From the NCBI RefSeq assembly GCF_003790525.1, contig NZ_CP033635.1: a stretch of DNA of 64,000 nt; one strand, 5' to 3'. Below are positions 5,418 through 8,121 of the stretch, piece by piece. Under the pieces are notes generated by a model that did not search any database, was not told the origin of the DNA, and saw only the letters and a list, made by a program, of their open reading frames with translations. Position 1 is the first letter of the stretch, and each line of letters starts with the position of its first letter. A program made the position numbers and the translations under genes. The DNA comes from Escherichia coli. GTDB taxonomy: Bacteria > Pseudomonadota > Gammaproteobacteria > Enterobacterales > Enterobacteriaceae.

Positions 5418-7076
<1,659 letters not shown>

Positions 7077-7077
7077 T

Positions 7078-7215
7078 GATGTGCCACATCCGGCATGGTT
7101 TGCCGGATGTGGCGTATGCTAATAAGACGCGTCAGCGTCGCATCAGGCAACCGGCTCGGGCGTTAGATGTCGGATGCGGCGTAACCGCCTTATTCGGCCT
7201 ACAGGTTGCAGCACT
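7078..7215. repeat. REP/BIME-type repetitive extragenic palindromes (two or more units) between the mqo and eco 3' ends
   Basis: GCCGGATG...GGCGTAACCGCCTTATTCGGCCTAC-type palindromic units typical of enterobacterial REP sequences, in a convergent intergenic region. Confidence 0.7.
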
Positions 7216-7225
7216 TCACAGCAGT

Positions 7226-7714
7226 TTAGCGGACAACCGCGTTGTCAATTTTCTCTTCCGCCTTCCAGACACGGTACTTCACATCCACATTGTCTGGCGT
7301 ATACACCACGATCGGCAGCTTGCTGTTGTAACGCAGCATTCCAGCATCGCCCAGATACGCGGTGACAAATTTCTTCTCTTTCTTGCCATCCGGGCAAGCC
7401 ATCATCGTGGAAACCGGCGAGCTAACTTTATCAAAGACATAATAATCATAGCCCCAGCCTTCCAGCGTTTTGCTTTCCAGCTTCCCGCCGAGACGATGCA
7501 AATTGCAGTCGACTTCCAGCGTCTGACCGATTAACAGTTCTACTTTCAGGGTAGATTCATCTTCTTGCGGAGTTAACTGAATCACCTGACGCTTCATGCC
7601 TTTTTCAGCTTGTGGATAAGGTGCGATTTTTTCCAGTGGCTGGACGCTTTCTGCCGCCCAGGCGGAAGTGGTGGCGAAAGCGGCAAACAATACTGCAGGT
7701 AGAATGGTCTTCAT
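7226..7714 (-). CDS. eco: Ecotin, periplasmic serine-protease inhibitor
   Basis: ORF 7226..7735 trimmed to the [20 protein letters not shown] signal-peptide start (162 aa), preceded by a GGAAAG Shine-Dalgarno. Confidence 0.93.
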
Positions 7715-7848
7715 TTTTTTGCTTTCCTTCTTCATTTATAGGTTTTCACCGATGATGTCGCTGAAGGTTAACATATTCATCAGATTTATTAATTTGCTTT
7801 ATGAATAACTTAAAGAACATTCAGATAATTTTACCTGCTCTTTTAGTG

Positions 7849-8013
7849 TTAAATTCTGATGAGAAAACAAACCAGCAGAAATATCTCTGGCGAATTAATC
7901 GCTATATAAATATGTTTATAACCATTTGAAATGTGAGCAAAAGCCCGTTTTTGCCACGCTTCCCGCCACTCTTTTGATCCTGCTACAGGTTTTACCCCGA
8001 TCGGGGTATGCAT
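7849..8013 (-). CDS. yojO: Small protein of unknown function (54 codons), divergent from napF
   Basis: Hand-translated minus-strand ORF MHTPIGVKPVAGSKEWREAWQKRAFAHISNGYKHIYIAINSPEIFLLVCFLIRI-stop. Length and position agree with my recollection of the K-12 small gene yojO next to eco, but this is not verified. Below the 60-aa cutoff of the ORF track. Confidence 0.4.
   Translation of the reverse strand: MHTPIGVKPVAGSKEWREAWQKRAFAHISNGYKHIYIAINSPEIFLLVCFLIRI
7897..7921 (+). promoter_or_regulatory. Candidate ModE operator in the napF control region
   Basis: atCGCTATATAaatatgtTTATAAcc resembles the ModE consensus (CGCTATATA-N-TATATAACG); the napF promoter is known to be molybdate/ModE-responsive. 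Confidence 0.4.
7974..8008 (+). promoter_or_regulatory. napF promoter: candidate FNR half-site (TTGAT) and a perfect NarP/NarL 7-2-7 palindrome TACCCCGATCGGGGTA
   Basis: Perfect 16-bp palindrome at about 7993..8008 matching the NarL/NarP heptamer pair (TACYYMT-2-AKRRGTA), about 115 bp upstream of the napF start; TTGAT about 15 bp further upstream. Confidence 0.6.
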
Positions 8014-8121
8014 CTTTGACACATCCTTTAATATCTTAGCGGCTATAAAAATGGCTTATTAATTATGCGGTTTATTTGGTCGCTCTCAATTTTCAGAGCG
8101 CGTTAATGATGGAAGGTCAAT

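Follow-up and report, generated by a model that had tools for sequence, protein, structure and literature searches.

The segment 7849-8013 of the window, by which we mean the whole 64,000-nucleotide stretch of Escherichia coli DNA under analysis (NCBI RefSeq assembly GCF_003790525.1, contig NZ_CP033635.1), is, we infer, the DNA upstream of napF from which the operon for periplasmic nitrate reductase is controlled, with the assignment of factors to individual sites taken from the literature. The short open reading frame yojO, annotated across the same bases on the opposite strand, is very probably an open frame that crosses the napF sites and, judged from the comparative sequence evidence set out below, not a protein gene maintained by selection. 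An annotation left-over, as opposed to a hidden gene, is the most likely description of it. Both the yojO annotation and the napF operators are already known.

Locus and reading frame

The genes at this locus follow the order mqo, eco, the yojO ORF and napF, and then napD and napA, with the following positions in the window:

5430-7076, plus strand: mqo, which precedes eco in the gene order
7226..7735, minus strand: eco (ecotin), downstream of yojO and on the same strand
8013..7849, minus strand: yojO ORF, with ATG at 8013..8011, 54 codons and TAA at 7851..7849; a RefSeq CDS
8020..8022, minus strand: alternative in-frame GTG start with a product of 57 aa, the form used in records P0029 and P0049
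8122..8616, plus strand: napF, first gene of napFDAGHBC, the operon that the control region serves

Read on the minus strand from 8013, the sequence gives ATG CAT ACC CCG ATC GGG GTA AAA (M-H-T-P-I-G-V-K), and the frame continues to the TAA with the 54-codon translation MHTPIGVKPVAGSKEWREAWQKRAFAHISNGYKHIYIAINSPEIFLLVCFLIRI, so that the ORF divergent from napF is as the preliminary description of this DNA had it. An identical CDS is present between eco and napF in RefSeq/PGAP, where the allele of the window is listed as WP_001296243.1, 'hypothetical protein', and other alleles are named 'protein YojO'. Locus, strand, start and length are shared with yojO (b4604) of K-12, the 'uncharacterized protein YojO', from which the product of the window differs in three residues (H34Y, N40D and F50S) as well as in its RefSeq name. 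The eco-napF spacer is 386 nt long and was found in 5,421 of 5,426 complete E. coli genomes; that of the window is a non-K-12 allele, matching the spacers of SK1144, LF82 and other strains at 100% identity and those of K-12 type at ~98%.

Regulatory sites of napF within the ORF

Reading outward from the napF promoter, the control region would comprise the core, a NarL/NarP site (-44.5), an FNR site (-64.5), a CRP-like site (~-105.5) and a ModE site (-133.5), the last four of which together span 26 of the 54 yojO codons. The elements are as follows:

8009..8045, plus strand: napF P1 core promoter, ACACATCCT..AATATCTTA, conserved, with a -10-like TATCTT at 8032-8037
7993..8008, no strand assigned: NarL/NarP 7-2-7 operator TACCCCG-AT-CGGGGTA, i.e. 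TACCCCGATCGGGGTA, centre 8000.5 = napF -44.5
7974..7987, no strand assigned: FNR site TTGAT-CCTG-CTACA, TTGATCCTGCTACA, centre 7980.5 = napF -64.5, codons 9-14 (PVAGSK)
7932..7947, no strand assigned: CRP-like site TGTGA-GCAAAA-GCCCG, centre 7939.5 = ~-105.5, codons 23-28 (RAFAHI)
7900..7923, no strand assigned: ModE-like operator CGCTATATA-N6-TTTATAACC, CGCTATATAAATATGTTTATAACC, centre 7911.5 = napF -133.5, codons 31-38 (GYKHIYIA)
7852..7899, minus strand: hypervariable 3' third of yojO, codons 39-54, holding no recognised operator; the frameshift alleles map here

The centres 8000.5, 7980.5 and 7911.5, taken with the distances -44.5, -64.5 and -133.5, all give the same start point, so that +1 of napF P1 would lie at 8045, and the agreement of three site centres provides a useful internal check on this position. 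The yojO ATG then corresponds to -32..-34 of napF, and the ORF extends upstream to ~-196.

The NarL/NarP site TACCCCGATCGGGGTA is a perfect palindrome made of two inverted heptamers 2 bp apart, each with a single mismatch (position 7) to TACYYMT, and it covers the last base of yojO codon 2 and all of codons 3-7 (together HTPIGV). Both statements made about it earlier, that it encodes codons 2 to 7 and that it resembles the NarL/NarP heptamer pair, are thus borne out. Its placement fits napF -44.5, which makes it a predicted NarP/NarL operator, and a 7-2-7 site of napF has been located at -40 to -49 (PMC4549865).

As had also been proposed, the ORF runs on through an FNR-like half-site and a ModE-like site. 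The FNR site has a perfect left half relative to TTGAT-N4-ATCAA and a right half, CTACA, that matches at 2 of 5 positions; it exceeds two mismatches and was therefore missed by a search allowing up to 2. Its centre is exactly 20 bp from that of the NarP site, and its TTTGATC is invariant across all 12 aligned sequences. The FNR site of napF we take to be at -64.5 (Darwin & Stewart 1995/1998). An FNR ChIP peak has been recorded upstream of napF (PMC3688515).

Relative to TGTGA-N6-TCACA, the CRP-like site carries 3 mismatches, all in the second half, and it sits in a conserved block (7926-7947) that shows no variation among the E. coli alleles sampled and is also conserved among Escherichia, Citrobacter and Salmonella. 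The second half reads GCACG or GCGCG in Salmonella, C. amalonaticus and Citrobacter sp. Cu233, and GCGCA in the remaining Citrobacter strains (2-3 mismatches in each case). In the work of Stewart et al. 2009, cited in PMC3688515, the Crp site of napF reportedly lies upstream of the Fnr and NarP sites, and 7932-7947 is probably that site.

At the ModE-like site of the window, CGCTATATA and TTTATAACC are separated by the spacer AATATG. ModE operators are of the type CGnTATATA-N6-TATATAnCG, with inverted TATAT-type repeats, and the inverted repeat of the window resembles this type. The palindromic CGTTATATA...TATATAAC is kept in Citrobacter and Salmonella. The ModE site of napF reportedly lies at -133.5 (McNicholas & Gunsalus 2002). 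Activation of nap by ModE (PMC8139620) and the roles of FNR, NarP, NarL and ModE at nap (PMC9262595, PMC8139620) have been described. An IHF-like core at 7931..7919 was rejected as a further candidate, as it has one mismatch and the pattern is too common.

In site order, spacing and sequence the window matches the region that controls napF (aeg-46.5) in E. coli K-12, with no substantive difference (the allele is ~98% identical, and the Crp assignment is an inferred one). In K-12, sites for FNR, NarP/NarL and ModE are reportedly accompanied by a Crp site further upstream (Darwin & Stewart 1995; Darwin et al. 1998; Stewart et al. 2003).

Chance expectation

Neither the ORF nor a motif match, taken alone, is more than chance would give. 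Of 5000 shuffled versions of the 386-nt spacer (dinucleotide shuffling), 16.8% had an ATG ORF of at least 54 codons; for ORFs with any start codon and 57 codons or more the figure was 23.7%. The 64-kb window contains 194 ATG ORFs of at least 54 codons. The 7-2-7 consensus, allowing up to 2 mismatches, had 4 hits in the window vs 2.25 expected, and palindromy as such was rejected as meaningful, since the window has 3 perfect 16-bp palindromes. The overlap of ORF and operator had been called unusual, a description that finds no support, given that such an ORF appears in about one of six spacer shuffles and that the ATG and AAGGA of yojO are the complement of conserved napF promoter bases.

Conservation across relatives

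Spacers were compared across eleven E. coli/Shigella alleles, Escherichia sp. E1130, E. marmotae, E. albertii and a divergent 'E. coli' (L005), and, from other genera, five Citrobacter strains, Salmonella, Leclercia and Trabulsiella. A NapF-based contig scan supplied at least 7 useful loci, with Salmonella, C. amalonaticus and Trabulsiella added separately; E. fergusonii and a frameshift-ridden assembly (L039) were left out.

The operator blocks are conserved in six genera, which exceeds chance. The blocks shared across genera are ACACATCCT..AATATCTTA, GGGGTATGC with the remainder of the 7-2-7 site, TTTGATC, TGTGAG.AAAAGC and the ModE inverted repeat. In Citrobacter, Salmonella, Leclercia and Trabulsiella the 7-2-7 site is kept with consensus-compatible changes, and the variants seen in relatives (TACCTC and TACCCCA) are within or near the consensus. 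The homologous frame has 54 codons only in E. coli/Shigella and in Escherichia sp. E1130, whose YojO-like product is 74% identical. It amounts to 33 codons in E. marmotae, 20 in E. albertii and L005 (CAA to TAA at codon 21), 43 in Salmonella, 21 in C. amalonaticus, 16 in C. youngae, C. werkmanii and Citrobacter sp. Cu233, and 15 in Leclercia. In place of the ATG, C. youngae, Citrobacter sp. Cu233 and Leclercia have GTG, and C. werkmanii and Trabulsiella have GAG, so the retention at the syntenic position that is looked for in a small protein is not seen in these relatives, and no gene is called in the eco-napF spacer of Salmonella, C. amalonaticus or Trabulsiella. Among Escherichia species, nucleotide identity is 83-94% over codons 1-38 and 58-69% over codons 39-54.

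These data bear on the idea that yojO is an old enterobacterial gene, lost independently outside E. coli (in E. albertii, E. marmotae, Citrobacter, Salmonella and Leclercia). Its first 14-16 codons and the stretch 'RAFAHIS' are indeed recognisable in all these genera, in frame and free of indels, but what is recognisable coincides exactly with the NarL/NarP, FNR and CRP-like sites, the stops differ by lineage (15, 16, 20, 21, 33 and 43), the full frame is present in none of the five other genera and no related protein is found elsewhere. We therefore regard an old gene as extremely unlikely; with lineage-specific stops and no full frame in five other genera, it is most parsimonious that the 54-codon frame opened within Escherichia. 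The preferred explanation, an open frame across napF control DNA, would account for the conserved peptide stretches HTPIGV, PVAGSK, RAFAHI and GYKHIYIA as four operators read as codons.

The preliminary description had put forward two alternatives, a regulator seated on the yojO translation start or a chance reading through regulatory DNA, and had suggested comparing conservation of the ORF with that of the operators in relatives. That comparison yields the pattern in which only the operators are preserved, which the description had named among the signs that the ORF is no real gene. The second alternative is the one supported, given truncation of the frame in all non-coli lineages bar one, the missing third-position bias described below and the coincidence of conserved peptide stretches with operator sites. 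The first was ill-posed, as the targets of NarP, NarL and FNR are DNA and not mRNA; these regulators could at most block transcription of a divergent RNA, not occupy a translation start.

Start and promoter signals on the opposite strand

Two signals upstream of the yojO ATG could suggest expression:

8024..8028, minus strand: Shine-Dalgarno-like AAGGA, 10 nt before the yojO ATG and complement of napF TCCTT
8062..8089, minus strand: sigma-70 promoter-like TTGAGA-16-CATAAT, a 10/12 match that faces yojO and eco

On one reading, which we hold to be unlikely, yojO is a recent protein-coding gene of E. coli alone, formed de novo out of napF control DNA, transcribed from 8089..8062 and translated from the ATG at 8013, in which case occupancy of napF P1 by FNR, NarP, NarL and RNA polymerase would couple its expression inversely to that of napF. 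The ATG is accompanied by an AAGGA whose duplex with the anti-Shine-Dalgarno sequence (-6.3 kcal/mol) equals those of the real neighbours napF, napD and eco and ranks in the top 6% of ATGs in the window. The promoter-like element is joined by a site for the RpoD holoenzyme in the spacer, for which genomic SELEX (Shimada et al.) gave the same hexamers (PMC3946193). Among the lineages compared, moreover, the hexamers and the full ORF occur together in E. coli only, the -35 being altered in E. marmotae, E. albertii and L005 and the A of the -10 in E1130.

Against such a gene, the TACCCCGATCGGGGTA palindrome would fold in any mRNA into a hairpin of -9.6 kcal/mol at +6..+21, directly after the AUG and inside the ribosome footprint. 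The translation signals themselves are the complement of napF promoter bases conserved in most genera (ACACATCCT in 5 of 6 genera, TCCT in 12 of 12 sequences). As the ATG, the Shine-Dalgarno sequence and half of the codons are fixed by the regulatory constraints of napF, their presence is no evidence for a gene.

In a further version of this idea, yojO is a de novo gene at the moment of birth, in which ~38 codons are stop-free only by virtue of the four transcription-factor sites and in which the hydrophobic tail and a divergent promoter over napF P1 were gained in the E. coli lineage. We consider this quite unlikely; if it were true, a small protein would be made only while the napF operators are unoccupied.

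Transcription of the minus strand may also occur with no translation at all, as a by-product of promoter interference or as a long leader of eco, with the ORF incidental to it. The promoter-like element and the SELEX site are compatible with this, as is the lack of any terminator-like site on the minus strand from 8055 to eco, which lies downstream on the same strand; a start from the 8089..8062 element would be near 8055 and would overlap napF +1. Conservation of the hexamers does not, however, reach beyond E. coli, there are other promoter-like elements closer to the start of eco, and no published 5'-end data were found, with neither yojO nor its K-12 coordinates among the entries searched in the Cappable-seq, Kim 2012 TSS profiling and Stringer 2021 supplements. 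As a full account this is very unlikely, although as regards the ORF it is compatible with our best explanation, under which a minus-strand RNA from 8089..8062 may be made and would be expected to be non-coding or a by-product. A structured RNA of a known family in the spacer was considered and rejected, as no Rfam family was found.

Substitution pattern and composition

A coding signature is absent from yojO, which weighs against a young gene. Variable columns across Escherichia are distributed over codon positions 1/2/3 as 20/17/21 (chi-square p = 0.80) in yojO, vs 10/8/52 (p = 3e-12) in napF and 7/3/61 (p = 6e-20) in eco from the same genomes. By the Nei-Gojobori method, yojO dN between the window and E1130 is 0.145 and between the window and E. 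marmotae 0.108, vs 0.005-0.016 for napF, eco and napD in the same two comparisons, i.e. 7-27x that of the flanking genes; over all comparisons the ranges are 0.11-0.24 for yojO and 0.005-0.025 for flanking genes. The dN/dS of yojO against E1130 and E. marmotae is 0.45-0.56 vs 0.02-0.19 in the flanking genes, and over all comparisons it is 0.42-0.56, based on small counts, so that the substitutions expected of a small protein, concentrated at third positions and with dN much below dS, are not observed. In favor of a gene, dN/dS is slightly lower in the yojO frame than in the other two frames (0.42-0.56 vs 0.61-1.11, again from small counts). We do not take this as protein selection, because of the small counts and because the value is the same against E. 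albertii and L005, in which the frame is already broken. GC content by codon position is 0.47/0.38/0.35, with a GC3 of 0.56-0.65 in the neighbours, and the composition is thus unlike that of host genes.

Variation within E. coli and Shigella

Nearly all of 5,420 complete E. coli genomes carry the ORF unbroken and free of indels, and in a systematic sample the uninterrupted 165-nt span and its CDS were present in 58 of 60, which is a further point in favor of a young gene. This intactness weighs little, because alleles within the species diverge by no more than 4%, a stop results from just 5.7% of point changes (~0.6 stops expected per 10 polymorphisms) and the part of the 386-nt spacer outside the ORF is just as indel-free. 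For the four non-coli Escherichia lineages, the probability that the frame stays open under neutrality is ~0.22, 0.35, 0.22 and 0.11 by approximate arithmetic, so that approximately 0.9 intact lineages are expected vs 1 observed, and survival of the ORF fits the neutral expectation.

Polymorphisms within E. coli yojO are mostly non-synonymous (6, vs 4 synonymous). One of them, Gly6Glu, is a C to T change at 7997 that leaves the NarL heptamer within TACYYMT; the T is present in O157:H7 and fixed in E. albertii, Salmonella and Leclercia. As it changes the residue and yet keeps the heptamer, it shows directly which constraint acts here. Frameshift alleles also circulate, a second point against a young gene. 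A 63-aa form (P0013), due to a 1-nt deletion at codon 50, occurs in 383 contig-index blocks and in just 6 complete E. coli genomes, and a 71-aa form (P0045) from Shigella flexneri occurs in 178 contig-index blocks. The latter had no match in complete E. coli genomes, either through true absence there or through low-complexity masking of the query.

Databases and literature

Two protein searches, one word-seeded over 5.8 billion sequences and one by HMMER over 1.84 billion representatives, returned matches from Escherichia/Shigella only, with the single exception of one 44-aa Salmonella-like ORF call, and many of the YojO database matches are sequencing or adapter artefacts of varying length. 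The family PF28594 (YojO) in Pfam has a precomputed hit on all 70 relatives; a Pfam-A profile search gave no YojO match, in a version that does not include PF28594, and NCBIfam gave no meaningful match, just a spurious one at E = 0.15.

In the searchable literature we found no test of yojO expression or function, mentions being confined to gene lists, and the lack of published expression data likewise speaks against a young gene. A listing of yojO as 'highly expressed' by RCBS was set aside as a codon-bias score, a measure believed to be biased for short genes. Among the entries listed in the Fesenko microproteome tables, yojO stands as an annotated small protein, and it is given there as an annotated, genus-specific small-protein cluster (PMC11188072).

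Discussion

Like spurious or orphan AT-rich intergenic ORFs and 'proto-genes', yojO is restricted to one genus, has neither domain nor homologues, and shows no codon-position bias, a low GC3 and length variants caused by frameshifts. What sets it apart is that half of it experiences strong purifying selection as DNA. That half is operator DNA, which gives a misleading look of protein conservation and props up the database family. The calls by gene finders and the dedicated Pfam family probably follow from the operators, the ATG and the AAGGA being conserved for napF.

The result matters mainly for annotation hygiene, as K-12 and thousands of RefSeq genomes carry yojO, which now also has a Pfam family. 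It illustrates how DNA under strong regulatory constraint can pass for a conserved small protein, and how codon-position and synteny tests expose such imitation. Should the minority reading prove true after all, yojO would offer a clear-cut case of operator DNA giving rise to a gene.

Conservation and polymorphism in the napF control region

Along the spacer between eco and napF, and in the sequence bordering it, five elements were noted beside the 54-codon minus-strand frame yojO and the regulatory sites that it crosses.

Elements in and around the eco-napF spacer (window coordinates)
7117-7199, minus strand: match to Rfam naRNA4 (REP-type nucleoid-associated RNA), between mqo and eco
7852-7899: hypervariable patch, flanked by the ModE site and the area of the eco promoter
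7926-7947: conserved 22-nt block TTGAAATGTGAGCAAAAGCCCG, between the ModE and FNR sites
8062-8089, minus strand: sigma-70 promoter-like element TTGAGA-16-CATAAT, in the napF leader and facing eco
8067-8092, plus strand: terminator-like hairpin GCGGTTTATTTGGTCGC with a T-rich run after it, in the 5' leader of napF

The 22-nt block did not vary among the sampled E. coli alleles, and its conservation extends to Citrobacter and Salmonella. It contains a CRP-like TGTGA-N6-GCCCG motif, centered at about -105.5 relative to the inferred napF start, and is probably the Crp site described by Stewart et al. (2009); the sites listed in the preliminary description did not include this block. The left NarL/NarP heptamer, by comparison of alleles, carries a C/T polymorphism at position 7997, with the TACCTCG form found in O157:H7 strains and strain ES5, and the same state in E. 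albertii, Salmonella and Leclercia. With T at this position the perfect palindrome is lost, while the TACYYMT consensus is still satisfied; the change might affect NarP/NarL affinity.

Divergence on the eco side of the spacer

Nucleotide identity in the patch at 7852-7899 is 58-69% across Escherichia species, which is below what synonymous divergence in the flanking genes would predict. Within E. coli, 7 of the 12 polymorphic yojO columns lie at 7858-7873, and the frameshift alleles of yojO originate in this same patch. Its hypervariability could stem from recombination, from misalignment or from a run prone to indels. When the window is compared with Escherichia sp. E1130, eco shows a synonymous divergence of 0.16, against 0.028 for napF and 0 for napD; this difference points to a recombination boundary within or close to the eco-napF spacer.

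Strain S1-CAM-01-A (NZ_CP145714.1, 1-600) carries an IS5-like ISKpn26 element about 110 nt past the yojO stop, and its homology to the window stops at window position 7809, so that the part of the spacer nearer eco has been replaced. The annotated start of eco is itself inconsistent between strains, being placed at 7714 (MKTIL..., 162 aa) in most and at 7735 (169 aa) in SK1144 and others. Beyond eco, the naRNA4 match scored 48.5 bits (E = 4e-7), below the gathering score of 59.5.

Candidate elements in the napF leader

The predicted start of the minus-strand promoter-like element, at about 8055, would overlap the inferred napF +1 (8045) and thereby create divergent overlapping promoters; only E. 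coli retains both of its hexamers, TTGAGA and CATAAT, unchanged. The hairpin lies between the inferred napF +1 and the napF GTG start; it fits the consensus used in the scan only weakly, and such hairpins are no more numerous than in shuffles.

Dozens of predicted 155-aa proteins (P0121-P0183), mostly without a Pfam domain, match just ~57% of NapF, with identities of 67-82%. They resemble variants of napF that were frameshifted or wrongly called in draft assemblies.

An equivalent open frame in Salmonella

Upstream of napF in Salmonella, a 43-codon ATG ORF (MHTPIEVNAVAGSKECRVKASKRAFSHISMSYIDSYITKITNS) runs in the same frame and over the same operators as yojO, and a 44-aa version of it (P0194) appears as a predicted protein in at least one case. 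This Salmonella ORF shows that the operator blocks themselves hold the frame free of stops.
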